Of a DNA stretch of 64,000 nt, positions 6,820 to 46,451 are shown in pieces; the first letter of the stretch is position 1, and each line of letters starts with the position of its first letter. The notes beneath the pieces were generated by a model. That model was not told the DNA's origin. It saw only the letters and a program-made list of their open reading frames with translations, and did no database searches. Position numbers and translations under genes: made by a program. Source of the DNA: Bacillota bacterium (GTDB lineage: Bacteria > Bacillota > Clostridia > Ch29); the NCBI GenBank assembly GCA_028686075.1, contig JAQUCT010000001.1, positions 9,953 through 73,952 of the forward strand. Reading direction: 5' to 3'.

Positions 6820-7827
6820 ATGAAGACCATTCTATTGAGTGAAAAAGATATTAAAAAACTAATTACCATGCGAGAGGCTATTGATATTACCAACAAAACC
6901 TTTGCTGATTTGGGGAAAGGTAATACTCTCAACCCGACTAAGCTTAATCTTAATTTAGGTGACAGTGAACCTACTAAACTTCCCTATAAAGCGTCATTAA
7001 ACGCGATGCCTGCTTATATTGGATGGCAGGATATTGCAGGGATGAAATGGGCAGGGGGTTTCGGCAAAGGAAGGAAAGAAATTAATATGCCGTTTATCAA
7101 TGCCCTTATTTTGCTTGTCGAACCTAACTATGGTGACTTTCTTGCAGTAATGGACGGTACTTGGATAACTAAAGTGCGTACCGGAGCCCAGTCAGCGGCA
7201 ATACTCAGGTATTTATTAAAAGACAAGAAAAAAGCAACCTTTGGTATGTACGGTGCTGGGGTACAAGCCCGTACTCAGACCATGGCACTTACAAGTGAGT
7301 TCTATGTTGAAAAGCTGATTGTCTATGATCCAGTTTTAGAAGCAGCAAATAAGTTTAAGGAAGATATGAATAGTTATGTGCAAGGAGAGATAGTGATTGT
7401 GAATGAACCCAAAGATGTAGTGGAAAGTGATGCTTTCATATCCATAACTCCGGCTGACGATGCTTTTATTAAAGGAGAATGGTTATACAAGGGAAGTATT
7501 TATCTTGCCATGGGTTCGTACCAAGAATGTGATGATGTATGTATTTTAGATTCCGACATTATTATAGTTGACCACATCGGCCAGTGTCTGCATCGGGGGA
7601 ATCTCAAGAAACTCGCTGATCAAGGCAAGATTACAGAAAAAGACATATACTGCACGATCGGCGAACTTGCTGCAGGTTTAAAATCTGTCCAAAACTTAAA
7701 TGACAAAAAAACATTAATAGTCCCAATCGGTATGGGATGCCTAGATGTTGCAGTTGCGGCAGTTGCATATAGAAAAGCGTTGTCTTTAGGCGTGGGCAAT
7801 ACTTTTATGTTTGACCAAGTTGACTAG
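6820..7827 (+). CDS. Ornithine cyclodeaminase / mu-crystallin family NAD(P)-dependent enzyme
   Basis: OCD family signatures (TKVRTGA, Rossmann GMYGAGVQA); about 335 aa from ATG 6820 preceded by GGAGG. The ORF-track start at 6784 overlaps the transporter stop and is unlikely. Confidence 0.8.
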   Translation: MKTILLSEKDIKKLITMREAIDITNKTFADLGKGNTLNPTKLNLNLGDSEPTKLPYKASLNAMPAYIGWQDIAGMKWAGGFGKGRKEINMPFINALILLVEPNYGDFLAVMDGTWITKVRTGAQSAAILRYLLKDKKKATFGMYGAGVQARTQTMALTSEFYVEKLIVYDPVLEAANKFKEDMNSYVQGEIVIVNEPKDVVESDAFISITPADDAFIKGEWLYKGSIYLAMGSYQECDDVCILDSDIIIVDHIGQCLHRGNLKKLADQGKITEKDIYCTIGELAAGLKSVQNLNDKKTLIVPIGMGCLDVAVAAVAYRKALSLGVGNTFMFDQVD

Positions 7828-11332: not shown

Positions 11333-12592
11333 TTAATACTTAATCCTTTTTATTTCCGCTCCAAGGGAAGCGAGCTTCCCCTCCAGGTTCTCATAGCCCC
11401 GGTCTATATGGAACAGGTTATTTATTTCCGTCTGCCCCTTAGCCATAAGCCCCGCAATAACTAAAGCTGCGCCGGCCCTCAAATCGGTTGCACTTACATT
11501 GGAGCCGCTTAGGTCCCTAATGCCCTCTATTACCGCGACCCGGCCCTCAACCTTTATATCGGCACCCATCCTCTTTAACTCGTCCACATGCCTGAAGCGG
11601 CCCTCCCAGATGCTCTCGGTAATCATGCTGGTGCCCTCCGCCTGAGTGAGCATGGACGTTATGGGCTGCTGAAGGTCGGTGGGGAACCCCGGATAGGGAA
11701 GGGTCTTTATATCCACGCATTTTGGTCTTCCTTTGCTTATCACCCTTACGGAATCTCCGTTAAACTGCACCTCAACCCCCATTTCAGTCAACTTGGCCGC
11801 AATGGAATCCAGGTGCTTGGGTATTACGTTCTCTATAACTACATCTCCCCCCGGTATGGCCGCTGCTGCTATCATATAAGTTCCGGCCTCAATCTGGTCG
11901 GGTATTACCATATAGGTACTCCCGTGCATACTTTCCACGCCTCTTATTTTGATTACATCGGTACCCGCTCCTTTAACGTCGGCACCCATTGAATTAAGAA
12001 AGTTTGCCACGTCCACCACATGGGGTTCCTTGGCCACGTTTTCCAGTACCGTTGTGCCCTCCGCCATGGTGGCGGCTATCATAAGATTTATGGTGGCCCC
12101 TACACTTACAACGTCTAGGAATATATGGCTGCCGACAAGCCTGTCCGCCTTAAGGTTTATCATTCCATGTTCTATCTCCACCTCCGCCCCCAGGGCCCTA
12201 AAACCTTTTACGTGCTGGTCTATGGGTCGCAAGCCTATATCACAGCCGCCGGGGTACGCCATGGAAACCTCCTTAAAACGAGCAAGAAGTGCCCCCAACA
12301 GGTAATAGGATGCTCTCAGTTCCTTCACCTTGCCGTTGGTGATATGGAGGTGGTTCAAATCAGAGGAATCAATTTCCAGGGTACCGTTCTCGTCCTCCCG
12401 TACCTTGGCACCCATCTGCTCTAGTATCTCCATTAAGACCTTTACATCTCTTATTAAGGGCAGATTCTCCAAAACGCATCTATCATTCGCAAGCAGGGCT
12501 GCCGGTATAAGTGCCACAGTCGCATTTTTTGCTCCACTCACCGACACATGTCCTACCAACGGTTTGCCACCATTAATCAAAAGCTTCTCCAC
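11333..12592 (-). CDS. murA: UDP-N-acetylglucosamine 1-carboxyvinyltransferase MurA
   Basis: Full-length similarity to MurA including the active-site loop PGGCDIG (Cys present). GTG start at 12592 with GGGAG RBS. Confidence 0.9.
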
Positions 12593-12730
12593 ACCGCCGT
12601 AACTCCCTTCTGATTGTCCTGAAATATATTATATCATAAATGCCATGTTAACCAATGAAAATATAGTATTCAACAAATAACAATAAATTCCTGCCAATAT
12701 CATAAAATAGCCTAATTACTAAAATACATA

Positions 12731-12932
12731 AGGCTTCATGAAACGGAAGCGCATGCTCAAAATGGTTTAGCAAGGAAACTCGCTGAAGCTTCGCAGAAAA
12801 ACCGTAGGCCTGGCAGAACGCCAGGCCAGGCTTTTGCGCCATGGAGGGCGCATAAAATGCGTTAGGTTTTTCAAGAAGCAAGGCTAAAGTTTCCTCTAAA
12901 GCATTTTTGCAAAAGCGGGTATTCATGAAGCC
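12731..12932. repeat. Intergenic repeat family 2, long copy (about 200 bp) with 11-bp terminal inverted repeats GGCTTCATGAA / TTCATGAAGCC and an internal hairpin-rich insert
   Basis: The sequence aggcttcatgaaacg-aagcgca-gct-aaaatggtttagcaagg ... ttccctctaaagcatttttgca-aa-cgggtattcatgaagcct is shared with 46357..46451. This copy carries about 105 extra bp containing three short hairpins (gaagcttc, cctggcagaacgccaggcc, gcgccatggagggcgc). Confidence 0.8.
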
Positions 12933-12980
12933 TAATTGCATTTGTCTGCAATATGAAACCTGTTTTTGTAAATAGGCTCC

Positions 12981-13832
12981 TTATTTGCTTATTTGCCCTG
13001 AGAGTGCATTTACATAATACGCTTCCCCGTCGACGCATATACGCCACGCCGGGAACGCCTCCCCTTCCCGGGCTGTCTTCCAATCGAAATAATGCACCAG
13101 CCTTATGCTGTCTATCTCCACCGGCACCCTTTTCAGTATCTCTTTTTGTCCCGCCACCTTTATCAGCGCATCAACGGCGTGGGATATCTTTTTCCTGCTC
13201 CTTTCCGCCTTAACCGGATCAAGCCACAGCATATGCATGGAATTCACGCCACCGGAAGTGACCTCCATTTCCACAACGCTTACCTCCAGCAGTTTGTCCT
13301 TATACTTCTGCAGGAAGGACAGCAAATACCCGTCCCCGTTGGGAACAACGCTGTCAATGGTCATTGTGGGTTTGTATAAGCCGTTCTCCCTAAGATAGTT
13401 CTCGGCTATGTCAACCGCCTGCTCCTCAGTCAGATTCCCCTTAGGCTGATTCCGAAGACTAAGATTATTATAGAATACTTCCCGGTTGTTTTTTATCTCC
13501 AACACTATTCCGTCTTCCGAGTATCTGATCGAATCCCCCTTAGCCCCGGGAAAAACGTCTTTTCCCTGATAGACTGTCTTAATTAACTCTGCCGCGTCTA
13601 TTTCGGTGTACCTAGCGGTGAGTATTTCATCTGTATATATGTCCCTGGGTATAGGGGTATTAACTTGTATGCCTCTTTGTCCGAGTATTTCCACCACTTC
13701 TCTTATGCTGTCGTCGCTTATCCTTTCGTTGCGGTGGCCGTAATACTTAGCCTCCCAGACGTTATACGCCAAAAATATGTTTGTAATTATGAAGGCCACT
13801 ATCAATATGGTCTTTGCCCTGCCCCAGTCCAT
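12981..13832 (-). CDS. yycI: WalK-regulatory membrane protein YycI-like
   Basis: 283 aa, single N-terminal TM (ILIVAFIITNIFLAYNVW), size and position downstream of yycH as in the walRK-yycHIJ operon. Confidence 0.65.
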   Translation of the reverse strand: MDWGRAKTILIVAFIITNIFLAYNVWEAKYYGHRNERISDDSIREVVEILGQRGIQVNTPIPRDIYTDEILTARYTEIDAAELIKTVYQGKDVFPGAKGDSIRYSEDGIVLEIKNNREVFYNNLSLRNQPKGNLTEEQAVDIAENYLRENGLYKPTMTIDSVVPNGDGYLLSFLQKYKDKLLEVSVVEMEVTSGGVNSMHMLWLDPVKAERSRKKISHAVDALIKVAGQKEILKRVPVEIDSIRLVHYFDWKTAREGEAFPAWRICVDGEAYYVNALSGQISK

Positions 13833-13850: not shown

Positions 13851-15254
13851 CTATTCTACCAGTCTTCCCTCATAGGCGTCCACTATAAACGCCCTGTCTT
13901 CGGTCTTAATGTGCCAAACAGGGAACGCCCGGTACTCTTTGGTTCCTTCGGTATCAATACAATATCCCAGGTACATATCCAGAATAACAGGAAGGCTTTT
14001 CGTCTCACTAGCTCCGCCTATGGCCCCCGCCACCACGTCGGCGGCCTCCACGGGGTACAAAAGTGGTTTCTGGACTATCCTTGCCTTGGTTATATGATGG
14101 ATGTTCCGGGTATACTTAACCACTTTCCCTTCCACCACCGTAACCTCAATGGCACTGGTTTCAAGGTCACCCCTGCGGAAAAATGGTAGTCCGTTATAGG
14201 CATAATTAAACTTTAATAGGTGGCCGCGGTAATCGTTTTCAATCACCTCCCGTATTTCCTCCAGGTATGACTGTTCAGGCATGCCACCGTGAACGTTTAT
14301 AAATTTAAGGGCTGCGTCTATGGCACTGTTTATATCCGTACGGTTTTTGTCTCCGCCGGCATAGCTATAAACCATATATTCCATGAATCCGGAGCTGTCT
14401 ATCCTAAGCAGCGCACTCTGGCTGTCGGTATAAATGAAGGAGCCGCTCATTTCGGTTATCTTCCTCACCATGGACATGTCGCTGAAAAAACCGGAGGCCT
14501 GGGCATCCAGAATAGCCTGGGCATCGGTATCCAGTTCCTTCACCGCGGTACCCACCGGCAGATTGAATGAGGACATGTCCAGGGGTACATAAAAGCTGCT
14601 GTCCTCGCTGTAGCCTATTTCCCTCAGACTCCAGTATTTTACCGGGTCCCGCTCCTCAAGCCGGTCGGCCAGCCGATTCAGCGAGGCATTAACGTAGGGC
14701 CGTTCCGATTTGTAAACCGCTCCTTTTACCCCGTCGTAAATATAAACTGCCCCGTCACGGCCCAACGATACTATAAGGCCTTTTATACCGGCAATGGGGA
14801 TGCCTTCCCGGGCCTTTCCCCTGCCGAATACTTCCCTGAATATGGATAAATCAAACGCCCATCGATAATCCACCTCAATGGATTTACTCTCTCTGGCTGC
14901 GATCCATTCCTCCAACTGTACCTGCGAAAAAGCTATATCCTGTTCGCTTGTGAAAATGTGTTCCAGTATTTTGGATACTTCCTGATATATTTCAATAAAA
15001 ACCCTTCCGTTTGAAGAATCGTTTATCAGCTTGGTATGCGACTGGCCGCCAAAGTTAACCACTATGTATTGGGGTAAAACAAAACTAGACAGGTCATAGT
15101 CTTCTTTACTATCCTGTCCAGAAAAGGCTTGCTCTTCAGGAATTATCTTATCAATTGGAACGCTGAGCCATAGCTGTGTAGTTAAACCGAAACTGAGAAG
15201 CACAAGCCCTATCAAAATCCAGTTTTTTACCTTCTCTTTGTTCATTAAGACCAA
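13851..15254 (-). CDS. yycH: WalK-regulatory membrane protein YycH-like
   Basis: 467 aa, N-terminal TM (WILIGLVLLSFGLTTQLWL) followed by a large extracytoplasmic domain; sits between walK and yycI. Confidence 0.65.
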   Translation of the reverse strand: MVLMNKEKVKNWILIGLVLLSFGLTTQLWLSVPIDKIIPEEQAFSGQDSKEDYDLSSFVLPQYIVVNFGGQSHTKLINDSSNGRVFIEIYQEVSKILEHIFTSEQDIAFSQVQLEEWIAARESKSIEVDYRWAFDLSIFREVFGRGKAREGIPIAGIKGLIVSLGRDGAVYIYDGVKGAVYKSERPYVNASLNRLADRLEERDPVKYWSLREIGYSEDSSFYVPLDMSSFNLPVGTAVKELDTDAQAILDAQASGFFSDMSMVRKITEMSGSFIYTDSQSALLRIDSSGFMEYMVYSYAGGDKNRTDINSAIDAALKFINVHGGMPEQSYLEEIREVIENDYRGHLLKFNYAYNGLPFFRRGDLETSAIEVTVVEGKVVKYTRNIHHITKARIVQKPLLYPVEAADVVAGAIGGASETKSLPVILDMYLGYCIDTEGTKEYRAFPVWHIKTEDRAFIVDAYEGRLVE

Positions 15255-15281: not shown

Positions 15282-15758
15282 TTATTTTATTATCTCTTTT
15301 ATTATATCAAGGAAATTAAAGTTAAGTAGGTTCTGCACCGCTTCCCTTACCTCTTCTTTGCTGGACAGCGTAACCATTCCCTCTATAATCTCCTCTTCAT
15401 CTTCCGGGTTAACCGCCTTTATTACAACCTTGTTGGTACCGTTCTTAAGCTCCACTTCCCGTGCAAAAAAGCCGGTGGGTCCAACCACCAGCCCGGCCTC
15501 CTTACCCGGCTGTATGTATTCCTCCCAATTGTAAACCTCTTCCCCTTCAACCTTTTGCGACACTCTGCTGTAAACCCTCACTTCAATGGAGGTGTCAGCC
15601 TCGGCCCAGCCGGATATTATAATGTTTTTGTTTACCGTCTTAATATCGGTAATAGGCTTAATAAGCTCTACTATGCCGGGGGCTGCCAACACCGGTGTAA
15701 GCATGTTTAATACAAGTATTAAGCTGAGAATAATAACTGGATATACCTTCCTAATCAT
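15282..15758 (-). CDS. Small secreted protein of unknown function embedded in the wal operon
   Basis: 158 aa with a signal peptide (MIRKVYPVIILSLILVLNMLTPVLAAPG) and an acidic C-terminal half; lies in the walK-yycH intergenic gap on the same strand. Confidence 0.5.
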   Translation of the reverse strand: MIRKVYPVIILSLILVLNMLTPVLAAPGIVELIKPITDIKTVNKNIIISGWAEADTSIEVRVYSRVSQKVEGEEVYNWEEYIQPGKEAGLVVGPTGFFAREVELKNGTNKVVIKAVNPEDEEEIIEGMVTLSSKEEVREAVQNLLNFNFLDIIKEIIK

Positions 15759-15885: not shown

Positions 15886-17664
15886 TTAAGCGGGCAACAG
15901 TATTGTAACCGTTGTACCTTCGCCATGCCGACTGCTTATGCTTATTTCTCCCCCATGGGCCTCTATTATCTGTCGGGCTATCGAAAGCCCCAAGCCGGTG
16001 CCCCCAAGCTCCCTCGCCCTTGACTTGTCTACCCTGTAAAACCTCTCAAAGACTCTGATCATATCGGTCTCGGGAATACCTATTCCGTTATCCCGGACGG
16101 CTATACTTGCCTTTCCGTCGGAATACCCGGTAATTACTTCTATCCTTCCGTTGTCCTTAGTGTATTTAATTGCATTGCTCAGTATATTTAGTACAACCTG
16201 TTCTATTTTATCCTTATCCCCTTCAAAGGGTGGCAGAGGAGCCGTCTTTTTAACGGCAAGGGTATGTCCTTTCTGTTTGATTGGTATGTCCAGCTTTCTA
16301 ACCGTCTCGTCTATTACCTTTTCCAGGTCAAACCAGGTCTTGTTCCACTGGGTCTGCTGATAGTCAAGCTTGGACAAAAGCAGGAGGTCTTTTACCAGCC
16401 GTGTCATGCGCTCTGTCTCGCTGTTAACCACTGACAGAAATTCGGTGGCCAGTTCCCTTTGGTCGATAACCCCCTCCAGCAGTGTCTCCACATAGCTACG
16501 TATGGTGGTAAGGGGAGTCCGGAGTTCGTGGGAAACGTTGGCTACGTACTCCCTCCTCATTGTCTCCAGCCTATGCTGCTCGGTTATGTCCTGGAACACC
16601 AAAATATAGCCCAGGGTTTTCCTTTGCTCGCTCTTGAACGCGGCAGTCTCCATCCTCAGTATTGTGTCCTTTTGGGGAATAATGCTTTCCTGATTGGGCG
16701 GACGTTCTTTAATCCGCTTTATATCCAGGTCTATACCCATCCCGGCAAACATTTTCTCAAGCTTTGTTCCCTGGATATTGCCCTTAATACCCAAAAGTCT
16801 CATAGCGGCAGGATTTATGTGGATTATTTCTCCGTCCACGTTCACCGCTATTACGCCGTCGGTCATATAGGAAAGGATGGATTCCATCTTTCCTTTTTCG
16901 TTTGCTATCTCCCCGAGAGTTATTTTCAGTTTCTGGGTAAGGTAATTGAACATCTGGGTGAGCTGCCCTATTTCATCGGTGGATTTTACCTCCAGCCTGT
17001 GGTCAAAGTCCCCTTCCGCCATCTTTTCCGCCTTCGAGGTAACCTCCTTTATTGGCCCGGTAATGCTCCTTGCCAACAGCGATCCCAGTATAACAGTTAT
17101 AATAAGTGCCAATAGAGTCGCCGATGTCAGAATATTTTTAGCCTTGTCAAGGGTGGCAACCACCCCTGCCATTCCGGCCCTCATATATATTATTTTTTCC
17201 ACCTGTTCCGAATTGTTCTTGACCGGGAAGGCATAATCCATAATATACATCTGCCCGCCTTCGTTTCTTAAAACCTCCGTCTCCTTCCTTCCGGTCAGCG
17301 ACGAATGCAGAACGGTGGGCGGGTCTGTTCCCAAAATATCCGCTATTAAACTTCCGTTTGTCCCCTGGACGTTACTTCCTATAACCAGTCTTTCAGTATT
17401 AAGTACATAGACCTCCCTTATATGGGGGGAAAGGCTTACCTCGTACCATCTTTCTATAATCCTCTGTATGTCCGGAGCACCCACAACGCTTATGCCCCTT
17501 ATCTGAACCGAAAGAATTTGTGCCTCCTTGTCCAGGGTTTCAACAAGGTTTTCCTGGAGGTACTGCTCCATCTGCGTTATTATAATAGCTCCAACTATAA
17601 CCATAGCCAGAAAGACAAGCAGAAAATATATTATTACTATCTTCCATTGAATGCTCTTGAACAT
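15886..17664 (-). CDS. walK: Cell-wall homeostasis sensor histidine kinase WalK (VicK/YycG-like)
   Basis: Two TM helices flanking an extracytoplasmic domain of about 145 aa, then HAMP, PAS, HisKA (SHELRTPLT) and HATPase_c (DNGIGIP, GGTGLGLSI). Lies directly downstream of walR. Confidence 0.85.
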   Translation of the reverse strand: MFKSIQWKIVIIYFLLVFLAMVIVGAIIITQMEQYLQENLVETLDKEAQILSVQIRGISVVGAPDIQRIIERWYEVSLSPHIREVYVLNTERLVIGSNVQGTNGSLIADILGTDPPTVLHSSLTGRKETEVLRNEGGQMYIMDYAFPVKNNSEQVEKIIYMRAGMAGVVATLDKAKNILTSATLLALIITVILGSLLARSITGPIKEVTSKAEKMAEGDFDHRLEVKSTDEIGQLTQMFNYLTQKLKITLGEIANEKGKMESILSYMTDGVIAVNVDGEIIHINPAAMRLLGIKGNIQGTKLEKMFAGMGIDLDIKRIKERPPNQESIIPQKDTILRMETAAFKSEQRKTLGYILVFQDITEQHRLETMRREYVANVSHELRTPLTTIRSYVETLLEGVIDQRELATEFLSVVNSETERMTRLVKDLLLLSKLDYQQTQWNKTWFDLEKVIDETVRKLDIPIKQKGHTLAVKKTAPLPPFEGDKDKIEQVVLNILSNAIKYTKDNGRIEVITGYSDGKASIAVRDNGIGIPETDMIRVFERFYRVDKSRARELGGTGLGLSIARQIIEAHGGEISISSRHGEGTTVTILLPA

Positions 17665-17668
17665 TCAG

Positions 17669-18364
17669 CTAAACCCTCCTGAAATAGTAACCTACACCAC
17701 GCTTTGTAATGATGTATTTGGGATTGCTGGAATCGTCCTCAATCTTTTCCCTGAGGCGGCGTATGGTGACGTCCACCGTCCTTACATCTCCATAATACTC
17801 GTAGCCCCATACGTCCTCAAGCAGGGTTTCCCGTGTGAAAACCTGCTCGGTCTGAGAGGCCAGGTATTTTATCAGTTCAAACTCCCTCAGCGTAAGCTCT
17901 ACGGACTTCCCTTCCTTCCTCACTTCATATTTCGCAAAGTCTATAATAAGATTACCGGATTTGATGCAGTTGTCCAAACCGGGCTCGCTGCCCACGGGTA
18001 TCTCCGCCCTTCTTAAGTTAGCCTTCACCCGCGCCAGAAGTTCCCTGATCCCGAAGGGTTTTGTTATATAGTCATCGGCACCTAACTCCAGGCCCAGGAC
18101 CTTGTCCACTTCCTCTTCCTTTGCCGTAAGCATAATAATTGGCGTCTGAATGCTCTGCCTTATCTTCTTGCATACCGAAAACCCGTCAATTTTAGGCAGC
18201 ATAATGTCCAAAAGAATCAAATCGGGGTTTTCCCTCTGGGTCTTCTCGATGGCCTCCTGGCCATCGTAGGCCAATTCAACCGTATAACCCTCCTTTTCAA
18301 GGTTGAACTTCAGAATGTCGGCTATTGGCTTTTCATCGTCCACAACCAGTATTTTTTTATTCAT
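17669..18364 (-). CDS. walR: OmpR-family response regulator WalR (VicR/YycF-like)
   Basis: Receiver domain (VVDDE...D...LDIMLP...K) and a winged-helix OmpR/PhoB C-terminal domain; first gene of the wal operon. Confidence 0.85.
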
Positions 18365-20774: not shown

Positions 20775-22022
20775 ATGGGTTCTGTCAATCATCCATTAAA
20801 CAAAACACTGTTTAAACATCGGCTGGACCCGGCCTTAAAGAACATGGCTTCCGCAAAAAAAACGCGGTGGCTTTCAGTCATAGTCCAGTCGGTGAACGGT
20901 ATTGACGAAAGGATTAAAAAACATATAAAAAAACACAGTGGCAGGATAACGAAGGATTATCCATTTATAAAAGCATGCAATGTTTTGCTACCGCCCTCCG
21001 CGATTAAACCGCTGGAGACTTTGAGCCAGGTTCACTACCTGTCTTTTAACCGTCCGGTTGCCGCCCATCTTAACAACCTCAAAACTGTTATGGCATCGGG
21101 CACCGCCCATAACCAGGGCCTTTCCGGGAGAGACATAAATGTAGCACTGTTGGACACAGGTACATACCCACACCCGGACCTAATCCGGCCGGCAAACCGT
21201 ATCCTTTGTTTCAAGGACTTCGTTAACGATCGTGAATTTGCCTACGACGACAACGGCCACGGAACATTTATCGCGGGTATTATTGCGGGAAACGGTTCCA
21301 TGTCAAAGGGGGAGTACGCCGGCACCGCTCTCGGGGCAGGGCTCATAAGCCTTAAGGTTTTAAACCAAAGCGGAAACGGCTGGACGTCCACCGTCCTGTC
21401 CGGAATGCAGTGGGTATACGACAACCGGGAAAAGTATAGAATAAAGCTGGCCTGCCTGCCCCTTGGCTGCTCCGGTTCCCTGGCCGCCGAAAACGACCCG
21501 CTGTCAAGGGCTGCCCAGGCCCTGTGGGATTTAGGTGTCGTCGTTTGTACTTCTGCAGGCAATAACGGGCCGGAGGTCTCCTGGATATCCTCGCCGGGCA
21601 TTAACCCAAACATTATAACCGTAGGTGCCCTTCAGAGTTTCGGAGGAACCGTTTCCCGCGACAATCCCCTTGCCCTCTTTTCCAGCAGGGGGTATACCGC
21701 CGACGGAAACCCGGGACCGGATTTCGTCGCCCCCGGCACAGCGATAACGTCCCTAAACTCGGACCCGTGTTTTATGCCCAAGTCTCCTCTTTCCCACAGG
21801 AGTACACGGCTGGATAATTATTATTGCCAGGGCACCGGCACTTCCGCAGCCTGTGCTGCCGTCGCCGGTACCATCTGCCTTTTGCTTGAAAAGCACAGGG
21901 ACCTTACCCCCGACGAAGTAAAGTCCCTTTTAAAACACAGCTGCAAAAGTTTAAACCTGCTTAAGGAGCAGCAGGGCTACGGCCTGCCGGACATAAACAA
22001 ATTATTATATATAACGCATTAA
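20775..22022 (+). CDS. Subtilisin-like serine protease (peptidase S8)
   Basis: Catalytic triad contexts LLDTGT (Asp), HGTFIAGIIAG (His), GTSAACAAVAG (Ser). The last 6 codons and stop lie in the head of repeat family 1. Confidence 0.8.
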   Translation: MGSVNHPLNKTLFKHRLDPALKNMASAKKTRWLSVIVQSVNGIDERIKKHIKKHSGRITKDYPFIKACNVLLPPSAIKPLETLSQVHYLSFNRPVAAHLNNLKTVMASGTAHNQGLSGRDINVALLDTGTYPHPDLIRPANRILCFKDFVNDREFAYDDNGHGTFIAGIIAGNGSMSKGEYAGTALGAGLISLKVLNQSGNGWTSTVLSGMQWVYDNREKYRIKLACLPLGCSGSLAAENDPLSRAAQALWDLGVVVCTSAGNNGPEVSWISSPGINPNIITVGALQSFGGTVSRDNPLALFSSRGYTADGNPGPDFVAPGTAITSLNSDPCFMPKSPLSHRSTRLDNYYCQGTGTSAACAAVAGTICLLLEKHRDLTPDEVKSLLKHSCKSLNLLKEQQGYGLPDINKLLYITH

Positions 22023-22209
22023 TAATATTACATTCCTTTATCTGTCATTCCGAAGAAGCGAAGCCCGAATAATCCAACTCTGTCGCTTAAGAGGGCGAAG
22101 CCTGAAGAATCTTGCTTAGGGGTAGACCCTTCACTATTGCAAGATCCTTCGCTACCGCTCAGGATGACAACCATTACGCTCAGGATGACACGTTATAAGA
22201 TGTAAAGTC
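22004..22209. repeat. Intergenic repeat family 1, copy 1: mosaic of inverted sub-repeats (module gtcattcYgaRGRGcgaagcccgaaRaatc and its complement tccttcgctNcgctcaggatgaca)
   Basis: Shares head (ttatatataaYgcattaataRtattacatt), internal modules and tail (gatgacaNgNtagaagatgtaaagtc) with 29269..29456 and 29791..29959. The tail module cgctcaggatgaca is tandemly duplicated. Confidence 0.85.
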
Positions 22210-22234
22210 TTAAGCACATTATTTATAGAATTAA

Positions 22235-27501: not shown

Positions 27502-27577
27502 TGGTGACCCATCAGGGACTCGAACCCTGGACACCCTGATTAAGAGTCAGGTGCTCTACCGACTGAGCTAATGGGTC
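27502..27577 (-). tRNA. tRNA-Lys (anticodon CTT)
   Basis: 76-nt cloverleaf on the minus strand: GACCCAT-TA-GCTC-AGTCGGTAG-AGC-A-CCTGA-CTCTTAA-TCAGG-GTGTC-CAGGG-TTCGAGT-CCCTG-ATGGGTC-A-CCA, with an encoded CCA end and the conserved TTCGA T-loop. Confidence 0.9.
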
Positions 27578-29268: not shown

Positions 29269-29456
29269 TATATATAACGCATTAATAGTATTACATTCCC
29301 TTATATGTCATTCTGAGGGCGAAACCCAAAGAATCCTACTTTGTCGTTCTGAAGAAGCGAAGCCCGAAGAATCTTTCTTGAAATTTACATAAGGTCCTTC
29401 GCTTCGCTCAGCATGACAAAAAGGTCGCTCAGCATGACACGCAAGACGATATAAAG
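29269..29456. repeat. Intergenic repeat family 1, copy 2
   Basis: tatatataacgcattaatagtattacattcc...tgtcattctgagggcgaaacccaaagaatc...tgtcgttctgaagaagcgaagcccgaagaatc...tccttcgcttcgctcagcatgaca(x2)...gatataaag; same orientation as copies 1 and 3. Confidence 0.85.
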
Positions 29457-29560
29457 CCATAAATACGTTATATATATCATAATCCTAAGATATAGTACCA
29501 GAGTATATCCTTTCAGTCAAATTGTGAATGACGGTAAAATAAAACAGCCCTGAGGCTGTC

Positions 29561-29790: not shown

Positions 29791-29959
29791 TTATATATAA
29801 TGCATTAATAATATTACATTACTTGTCATTATGACTTTTGTCTGTCATTCTGAGGGCGAAGCCCGAAGAATCCGACTTTGTCGTTCTGAACGTAGTGAAG
29901 AATCTTCTTGGATAGATCCTTCGCTTCGCTCAGGATGACATGCTAGAAGATGTAAAGTC
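29791..29959. repeat. Intergenic repeat family 1, copy 3
   Basis: ttatatataatgcattaataatattacatt...tgtcattctgagggcgaagcccgaagaatc...tgtcgttctgaacgtagtgaagaatc...tccttcgcttcgctcaggatgaca...tagaagatgtaaagtc. Confidence 0.85.
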
Positions 29960-30135
29960 TTTATCATGTTATATATAGCATTACCAATATTGTTAATATT
30001 AATATCCCTCAAAACCCTTTACAAACAAAAACCGACCATATATCACGGACTTTTGTTATCAACAGTAGGTGTATAGATATCCACATTTATCCACACTATC
30101 CACAGAGATATACACAAACACACATTCTTATTTCG

Positions 30136-46356: not shown

Positions 46357-46451
46357 AGGCTTCATGAAACGAAAGCGCAAGCTTAAAATGGTTTAGCAAG
46401 GCACAAGTTCCCTCTAAAGCATTTTTGCATAAACGGGTATTCATGAAGCCT
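46357..46451. repeat. Intergenic repeat family 2, short copy (about 95 bp) between convergent genes
   Basis: aggcttcatgaaacgaaagcgcaagcttaaaatggtttagcaaggcacaagttccctctaaagcatttttgcataaacgggtattcatgaagcct; the terminal inverted repeats are identical to those of 12731..12932. Confidence 0.8.

Follow-up and report, generated by a model that had tools for sequence, protein, structure and literature searches.

Class C group II introns insert just downstream of the hairpins of intrinsic terminators. REP/REPIN and IS200/IS605 systems have neither terminal inverted repeats nor a target duplication, and carry a conserved tetranucleotide at the cleavage site. We know of no report that ERIC/IRU, Correia, RUP or BOX repeats target and duplicate terminators. 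All four are families of structured MITEs that bacteria carry in intergenic sequence which is transcribed (PMC2229807, PMC3184786, PMC10969869). IS1630, a member of the IS30 family, is reported to produce 16-26-bp duplications of inverted repeats (PMC3317919, PMC2853133). A further motif, TwoAYGGAY, was introduced by Weinberg et al. in 2010 and taken for a probable RNA that is not cis-regulatory and whose P1 stem is often very long (PMC2864571), and Gardner and Eldai later proposed that its GGA loops bind CsrA (PMC4333381).

Here we describe a repeat that occurs twice in the window, by which we mean the whole 64-kb stretch of DNA analysed. The first-pass annotation had placed two copies with exact terminal inverted repeats at 12731-12932 and 46357-46451, and this is borne out by the end sequence GGCTTCATGAA, which matches exactly four times in the window, at both ends of each copy (six matches with at most one mismatch, compared to 1.16 expected). 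The true inverted repeat is 12 bp long (AGGCTTCATGAA) and includes the self-palindrome TTCATGAA. The inverted-repeat-bounded unit of copy A, the long form, spans 201 bp (12732..12932, minus strand). Copy B, the short form, spans 93 bp (46358..46450, minus strand) and sits where ytvI and a class-V aminotransferase gene converge, between their two stop codons. The terminal repeat of copy A reads AGGCTTCATGAA on the minus strand at the yycI side (12922..12933) and on the plus strand at the murA side (12731..12742). We refer to the orientation in which the end reading GGCTTCATGAATACCCGC comes first as forward; forward for copy A is the minus strand, as for yycI and murA. The two copies were registered by repeat finding and manual alignment (MAFFT misaligned them), and have ~93 bp in common at 92% identity, in shared arms of 49 nt and 60 nt (repeat families D6 and D3). 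No third copy was found in the 64-kb window with the nhmmer family profile. An unrelated repeat family with ~230-bp units has three copies in the window (22006-22233, 29269-29482 and 29792-29983; families D1, D2, D4 and D5); this family is presumably the "family 1" of the first-pass annotation.

Copy A resides in the neighbourhood of the wal genes. The gene order on the minus strand is walR (17669-18364), walK (15886-17664), a 158-aa ORF, yycH (13851-15254), yycI (12981-13832), the element, murA (11333-12592), a yycJ-like gene of the metallo-beta-lactamase fold and htrA. The 158-aa ORF between walK and yycH (15282-15758, minus strand) has no Pfam or NCBIfam match, and its position and size (158-175 aa) are kept in relatives. 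In each of the five species compared (the window species and those of L053-L056), murA has yycI on one side and the yycJ-like gene on the other.

The long form exceeds the short one by 108 bp (201 vs 93 bp between the GGC...GCC ends). The additional 108 bp, missing from copy B, are bracketed by two copies of a 7-bp direct repeat, AGCAAGG (12769..12775 and 12877..12883), and contain two GC-rich hairpins on an 8-bp closing stem, GAAAAACC/GGTTTTTC. The predicted fold of the copy A sense-strand RNA (-87.4 kcal/mol, z = -8.0) is a single long imperfect hairpin tipped by these two hairpins. Apical hairpin 1 (12807..12827) is GGCCTGGC-AGAAC-GCCAGGCC, with the loop AGGAC in the remaining long copies; read on the minus strand, this hairpin precedes TACGGTTTTT and is thereby terminator-like. 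Apical hairpin 2 (12830..12861) has the core GCGCC-ATGGAG-GGCGC at 12836-12851, and the loop AYGGAT in the remaining long copies.

The first-pass annotation had regarded the ORFs predicted inside the element as artefacts, and we concur. The 97-aa ORF at 12648-12941 (minus strand) is a spurious product of the repeat, because it has no family match and its frame is broken by stop codons or frameshifts in five of the five other long copies. This ORF is annotated as a gene in three public assemblies of the same species (L002-L004). The consequence for annotation is that the 97-aa gene listed publicly for this species is spurious.

To analyze the distribution of the repeat, we scanned one genome per species for both inverted repeats separated by a 56-86-nt gap. 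Homologous 86-93-bp elements were identified in three other Clostridia bins, each just after a terminator-like hairpin; an additional candidate, L007, turned out to be a chance coding match. These three copies and the window copies share the asymmetric end GGCTTCATGAAWACCCGYTT. A metagenome scan with this pattern returned 41 loci, comprising ~30 real copies at ~25 distinct sites, mostly from anaerobic-digester assemblies, and ~10 chance matches inside genes. The family is dispersed among uncultured Clostridia of anaerobic digesters. The description of the repeat as a MITE-like dispersed element thus stands, given ~25 other insertion sites, exact inverted repeats and non-coding sequence. In the terms used for MITEs, the family shows exact 12-bp inverted repeats, units of 55-335 bp, no conserved ORF, dispersed copies (two in the window and ~25 sites elsewhere) and presence/absence at orthologous sites. 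Against a mobile element speaks the number of copies, only two in 64 kb.

The family is modular, with units of 55, 72, 86, 93, 156-159, 197, 201-203 and 335 bp. The architecture of copy A is repeated exactly at five independent loci (L018, L034, L036, L039 and L045). A different module occupies the interior of the 197-bp forms, and the 335-bp copy in L024 has a Clostridiales-2 RNA (Rfam RF02937) nested in its tip at 6840-6920 on the minus strand (80 bits, gathering score 58.6). Judging by this copy, the Clostridiales-2 "sRNA" motif also behaves like an inserted repeat.

The conserved sequence around copy A extends beyond the boundaries first assigned to it, to ~12697-12955, and the nhmmer family-profile match at this copy spans 12702-12954. 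The full element of ~260 bp consists of a 22-nt left flank hairpin, the inverted-repeat unit folded as one long rod, and a right flank of ~33 nt. The left flank (~22 nt) is a small hairpin with the loop GACAAA and the motif TTGCAGRCAAA, common to many copies at unrelated loci; the right flank (~33 nt), ...GGTAATTGGGTTTTTCTTAAG, is likewise common to many family copies. Copy A carries both of them. Its left outer flank (12933..12955, minus strand) is CATATTGCAGACAAATGCAATTA, with the small hairpin ATTGCA/TGCAAT and the loop GACAAA, and its right outer flank (12714..12731, minus strand) is TTATGTATTTTAGTAATT, for which the family consensus is TTAnnnnnnTGGGTAATTGGGTTTTTCTTAAG. The outer ends of the element, ...TTGCAGACAAA... 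and ...TTTTTCTTAAG..., are weakly inverted (TTGCAGACAAA vs TTAAGAAAAAC). We looked for outer flanks that occur apart from the inner unit and found none. At L050 (2126-2194), the usual right outer flank is joined to the otherwise left arm (TACCCGC side), which suggests arm conversion or inversion via the palindromic ends.

One explanation of the long and short forms takes the 95-bp MITE as the basic unit and proposes that copy A gained a nested 105-bp hairpin element with a 7-bp target duplication, AGCAAGG. The extra segment is indeed bracketed by a 7-bp direct repeat, at which the junction of the 93-bp form sits (CCTTGCT on the other strand); however, the right-hand repeat reads CCTTGCT in the window copy only. 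The imperfect inverted ends of the segment, GCTTC..GAAAAACC and GGTTTTTC..GAAGC, would suit an independent element, yet the segment is self-paired and prolongs the one rod, and it was never seen standing alone outside an inverted-repeat unit at any locus found with the family profile. Although the family offers precedents for such nesting, namely the Clostridiales-2 RNA in L024 and the inner module of the 197-bp forms, the distal 28 nt of the copy A "insert" (GCGAAGCTTCAGCGAGTTTCCTTGC) have their homologue in the core of the 86-bp L010 form and so are not foreign. Moreover, the orthologous loci L010 (7686-7771, 86 bp) and L014 (5462-5533, 72 bp), from two related organisms, hold one inherited element with different internal deletions, and these deletions therefore arose by decay in place. 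We consider a nested insertion quite unlikely. Short forms such as copy B are probably internal-deletion derivatives that arose between CCTTGCT repeats. Thus, of the first-pass view of the two variants, the additional segment in copy A stands and the direction of change is reversed, the short form being more simply read as the deleted one, as in L010 and L014.

A consensus fold was built from the six long copies (window copy A, L018, L034, L036, L039 and L045). All six form a single rod of 74 pairs, with 95.5% of cells paired, that ends in two adjacent hairpins above an outer stem of ~53 pairs. Ten pairs have changed on both sides, compared to 4.3 +/- 1.4 in shuffled alignments (0 of 500 reach 10) and at most two in slid controls. 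Most of these compensatory changes fall within the helices of the tip, namely the closing stem GAAAAACC/GGTTTTTC and both apical hairpins. They imply selection on the structure beyond the needs of a passive transposon remnant, which counts against a mobile-element origin.

An Rfam scan of the whole window at the gathering score returned a tRNA gene (27505-27577, minus strand) as the sole match. At the E-value threshold, the segment 12768..12915 on the plus strand, opposite to the one that encodes the wal genes and murA, matches TwoAYGGAY (RF01731) over the full length of the model (positions 1-168), with a sub-threshold score of 33.2 bits (E = 0.001; gathering score 43 bits). Six of the six long copies match TwoAYGGAY full length and on the same relative strand. 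L034 reaches the gathering score (44.5 bits), while L045, L039, L018 and L036 score 34.7, 34.1, 31.9 and 31.7 bits. The family has the TwoAYGGAY layout of two adjacent hairpins on a long P1-like stem. The loops of the other long copies, AGGAC and AYGGAU, are one shortened and one canonical; since AGAAC and AUGGAG, neither of them canonical, replace these in the window, we call the window copy degenerate. The hairpin-rich middle of copy A is, as far as covariance matching can tell, a diverged TwoAYGGAY copy and not a foreign insert. What had been taken for a 105-bp insert is instead the apex of the same hairpin, with compensatory changes in the five other long copies and a match to TwoAYGGAY.

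Such a match invites the reading that copy A is a working TwoAYGGAY-class small-RNA gene on the plus strand, antisense to yycI and murA, whose GGA loops titrate CsrA as in the proposal of Gardner and Eldai. On the TwoAYGGAY strand, each of the six long copies has a full-length match and one of these exceeds the gathering score, but the window copy falls 10 bits under the threshold and has the loop AGAAC (vs AGGAC) next to AUGGAG. Compensatory changes in both loop-bearing hairpins fit a functional RNA, and the TwoAYGGAY strand has a more stable fold than the opposite strand in 7 of 7 long copies (by 4.5-17 kcal/mol); however, the upstream gene is co-directional with the TACCCGC-first strand, opposite to the TwoAYGGAY strand, in 15 of 19 copies, and the G-U vs A-C counts favour neither strand. 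Gene orientation, fold energies and G-U/A-C counts hence disagree on the strand of any functional RNA. Neither flank contains a conserved promoter, the hexamers being weak and inconsistently spaced, and no convincing one was found in the right flank. The CsrA-site proposal is published (PMC4333381), although CsrA binding of TwoAYGGAY is not shown in the literature consulted; a tblastn search of 532 kb of sequence gave no match to csrA, but the CsrA queries were approximate and the result is uninformative. Taken together, we regard a working small-RNA gene as unlikely.

Comparison with relatives bears directly on the origin of copy A. It is missing between yycI and murA in four of four related species with identical gene order, walK-yycH-yycI-murA-yycJ (YycI identity 82, 69, 64 and 61%). 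The yycI-murA spacer is 388 bp in the window vs 127-141 bp in the four relatives, where it holds only the yycI terminator hairpin and the conserved murA promoter. In the relatives, a hairpin and T-run follow directly after the yycI stop codon (for example CCTGTTTATCAAAACAGGTTTTTT in L053 and AAAAAGCCTGTTATTGGAAACAGGCTTTTT in L054; -10 to -15 kcal/mol). The window retains one target copy, the yycI terminator hairpin at 12956..12980 on the minus strand (GGAGCCTATTTACAAAAACAGGTTT; L053 orthologue AGGGCCTGTTTATCAAAACAGGTTTTTT), in which a mismatch weakens the stem and the T-run is lost, three T's remaining. On the other side of the element, AGGCTATTTTATGATAT at 12697..12713 (minus strand) is a probable second target copy in a decayed state that lacks the 3' half of its hairpin. 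The window aligns with the relatives' empty site again from TTTTATGATAT on, and murA keeps its own promoter downstream of and outside the element, an extended -10 (TGATATAAT, 12628..12636, minus strand) that is invariant in the five species. The spacer is 100% identical in six same-species bins, and the insertion is therefore considered fixed. Likewise, the copy B site has a spacer of 129 nt in the window vs 18-30 nt with a shared hairpin in two relatives, both without copy B. From these alignments we conclude that copy A is inserted onto the yycI terminator, in this species only. The comparison with relatives suggested in the first-pass annotation thus favours mobility, with the element absent from the copy A position in four species and present at many unrelated loci.

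These empty sites also decide against a conserved cis-regulatory leader, attenuator or processing site of a wal-murA operon. Such a role was suggested by the position between two co-directional genes of essential function, by a sense-strand terminator-like hairpin with a T-run and by the very stable fold. However, the junction is empty in four relatives, which already have the terminator and the murA promoter, and the element occurs at ~25 unrelated loci. A role as murA leader is excluded because the relatives' sites are empty, and a cis-regulatory leader, effectively refuted already by this comparison, is left with hardly any probability. The position between yycI and murA given in the first-pass annotation is right, whereas an uninterrupted wal operon at this point is contradicted by the relatives' yycI terminator and the invariant murA promoter. 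In our interpretation of the alignments, the yycI-murA junction is an operon boundary struck by a mobile element and not a conserved regulatory leader.

Elsewhere in the family, the insertion has left a clearer signature. In eight copies, direct repeats of 18-30+ nt lie just outside the outer flanks, at constant offsets from the unit. The duplication score is reached by 0 of 100 shuffles for L010, L013, L018, L024, L034, L039 and L047, and by 2 of 100 for L033. Seven of these eight flanking repeats fold as terminator-like hairpins, and the long T-run is mostly kept by the downstream hairpin copy only. This T-run asymmetry also implies that, once inserted, the element belongs to the 3' untranslated region of the gene upstream of it. 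The shuffle test detected no significant hairpin duplication at copy A or copy B; for copy A, the duplication rests on a resemblance of ~10 nt and an assumed later deletion. A search for target-site duplications, as the first-pass annotation advised, was hence rewarded by 18-30-nt repeats at eight relatives' copies and by none that is significant at either window copy. The flank-less copies (copy B, L016, L032, L045 and L041) showed no duplication of any kind, the short classical type included, and for this reason we may be dealing with two elements, one nested in the other: the inverted-repeat unit and the flanked element.

The glutamate dehydrogenase locus allows such a duplication to be compared between relatives. 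In L024, two hairpin copies bracket the element, while L061 and L062 have one copy. In the species of L024, the downstream spacing of the dehydrogenase gene is equal in seven of eight contigs, and 12 nt shorter in L064. From ~2860 in L061 and L062, the glutamate dehydrogenase terminator is directly followed by what resembles a group II intron, with an ORF (3275-4254 in L062) that carries the domains RVT_1 and GIIM. This one terminator site seems to be used by two terminator-seeking elements of different kinds.

The palindromic architecture raises a further explanation, in which the repeat is a REP/REPIN-like or IS200/IS605-derived palindrome that a hairpin-recognising Y1 (HUH) transposase mobilises in single-stranded form. 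The strong palindromes, the selection for hairpins, the association with terminator hairpins and the lack of a short target duplication of fixed length would agree with this. All copies nevertheless have exact inverted repeats, eight of them have duplications of 18-30 nt, and no conserved target tetranucleotide precedes the left end. We judge single-stranded transposition of this kind to be very unlikely. As to an autonomous partner with matching ends, none was found in the neighbourhoods of truncated copies or in plasmid and phage collections: the ORFs beside the truncated copies L043, L051, L023 and L050, inspected by eye from their N-terminal sequences, include no transposase and are housekeeping-like only, and the full element has no blastn match in the plasmid and phage collections.

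We then propose a model for the origin of copy A. In this model, the element would insert at the hairpins of intrinsic terminators just after stop codons, and the hairpin would be duplicated on both sides. The simplest mechanism, which we infer from the structure of the insertion sites, would be cutting on either side of the inverted-repeat target by a trans-acting transposase, as in the case reported for IS1630. In the window, the insertion would have hit the yycI terminator, upstream of a pre-existing murA promoter, after which the upstream hairpin copy would have lost its T-run and the downstream copy would have decayed. With the upstream T-run lost and the downstream copy decayed, read-through from yycI into the element is to be expected. 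The read-through transcript would then run into the sense strand of the element, a long duplex and a GC hairpin with U-rich sequence after it. Together, our results indicate that copy A likely arose when a small, non-autonomous MITE-like palindrome inserted in this lineage and became fixed; such an element would target terminator hairpins with their duplication, most simply by means of a trans-acting transposase.

What the element does at this locus today may be modest. In the window, the sense strand is a long duplex with GGCCUGGCGUUCUGCCAGGCC followed by UACGGUUUUU. The minus strand has GGCCTGGCGTTCTGCCAGGCC followed by TACGGTTTTT; the U-run starts 5 nt past the stem and belongs to the paired sequence of the rod. 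Any present effect on termination or processing is one that we infer from these features, and at present the element probably does no more than stand in as a 3'-end or termination structure of the wal transcript, if it has any role. The yycI gene would in this respect represent a natural case in which the terminator of a gene is replaced by an element-borne structure.

The results tie the orphan motif TwoAYGGAY of 2010 to a repeat family with clear presence/absence polymorphism and a rare mark of insertion, in which entire terminator hairpins are duplicated. In the part of the published alignment (TwoAYGGAY.sto) consulted, multi-copy members with conserved flanks are found in Psychromonas ingrahamii, and members on human-gut contigs share long palindromic arms (PMC2864571). 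Within the limits of this part of the alignment, the Psychromonas and gut members are consistent with a repeat-element nature of the whole Rfam TwoAYGGAY family, while the GGCTTCATGAA and GGCUUCAUGAA ends and the TTGCAGACAAA flank are absent from the portions of the 2010 alignments covered (PMC2864571). It is tempting to speculate that the TwoAYGGAY "orphan RNAs" are not free-standing small-RNA genes and form the apical domain of a terminator-seeking mobile element, which would cut on both sides of a terminator hairpin, duplicate the hairpin and enter the 3' untranslated region of the upstream gene; we put this forward as a tentative possibility only. If it is true, the GGA/UCC loops would serve the element, through binding of a transposase or a CsrA-type host protein or through RNA stability, and the same terminators would also be contested by group II introns. 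If the link is general, the conservation of TwoAYGGAY would reflect selection for transposition or persistence and not host regulation, and the repertoire of bacterial MITEs would gain a non-autonomous terminator-targeting class.

In comparison with the known systems, the element reported here resembles ERIC/IRU, Correia, RUP and BOX in being shorter than 300 bp and non-coding, with terminal inverted repeats and long hairpins, in its long and short variants, distinguished by internal segments, and in its intergenic location, from which such repeats can influence termination or RNA processing. Those repeats differ from it in that their duplications, if any, are short and of fixed length (TA for Correia and RUP), and they share no sequence similarity with it. 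With class C group II introns the element shares the terminator sites, the intron of L061/L062 occupying a terminator that bears the element in L024. The introns, however, encode a reverse transcriptase, move by an RNA-mediated route and do not duplicate the hairpin, whereas the element has neither ribozyme domains nor an ORF. Like TwoAYGGAY (RF01731), the family has two adjacent hairpins, an unusually long outer stem and, in most long copies, one AYGGAU loop, and it is multi-copy with no consistent gene association. It departs from the motif in its first loop, AGGAC (5 nt) instead of AYGGAY, and in its mobility and terminator duplication, which are not described for TwoAYGGAY in the literature consulted. 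IS1630 is also reported to have long target duplications of variable length (16-26 bp vs 18-30+ nt here), a resemblance of outcome only; IS1630, at 1.2-1.4 kb, is autonomous, with a transposase of its own and unrelated hosts, and the element here is non-coding with ~260 bp. The element is thus a MITE-like repeat with a divergent TwoAYGGAY core and an IS1630-like habit of duplicating terminators, and each of these kinds is already known.
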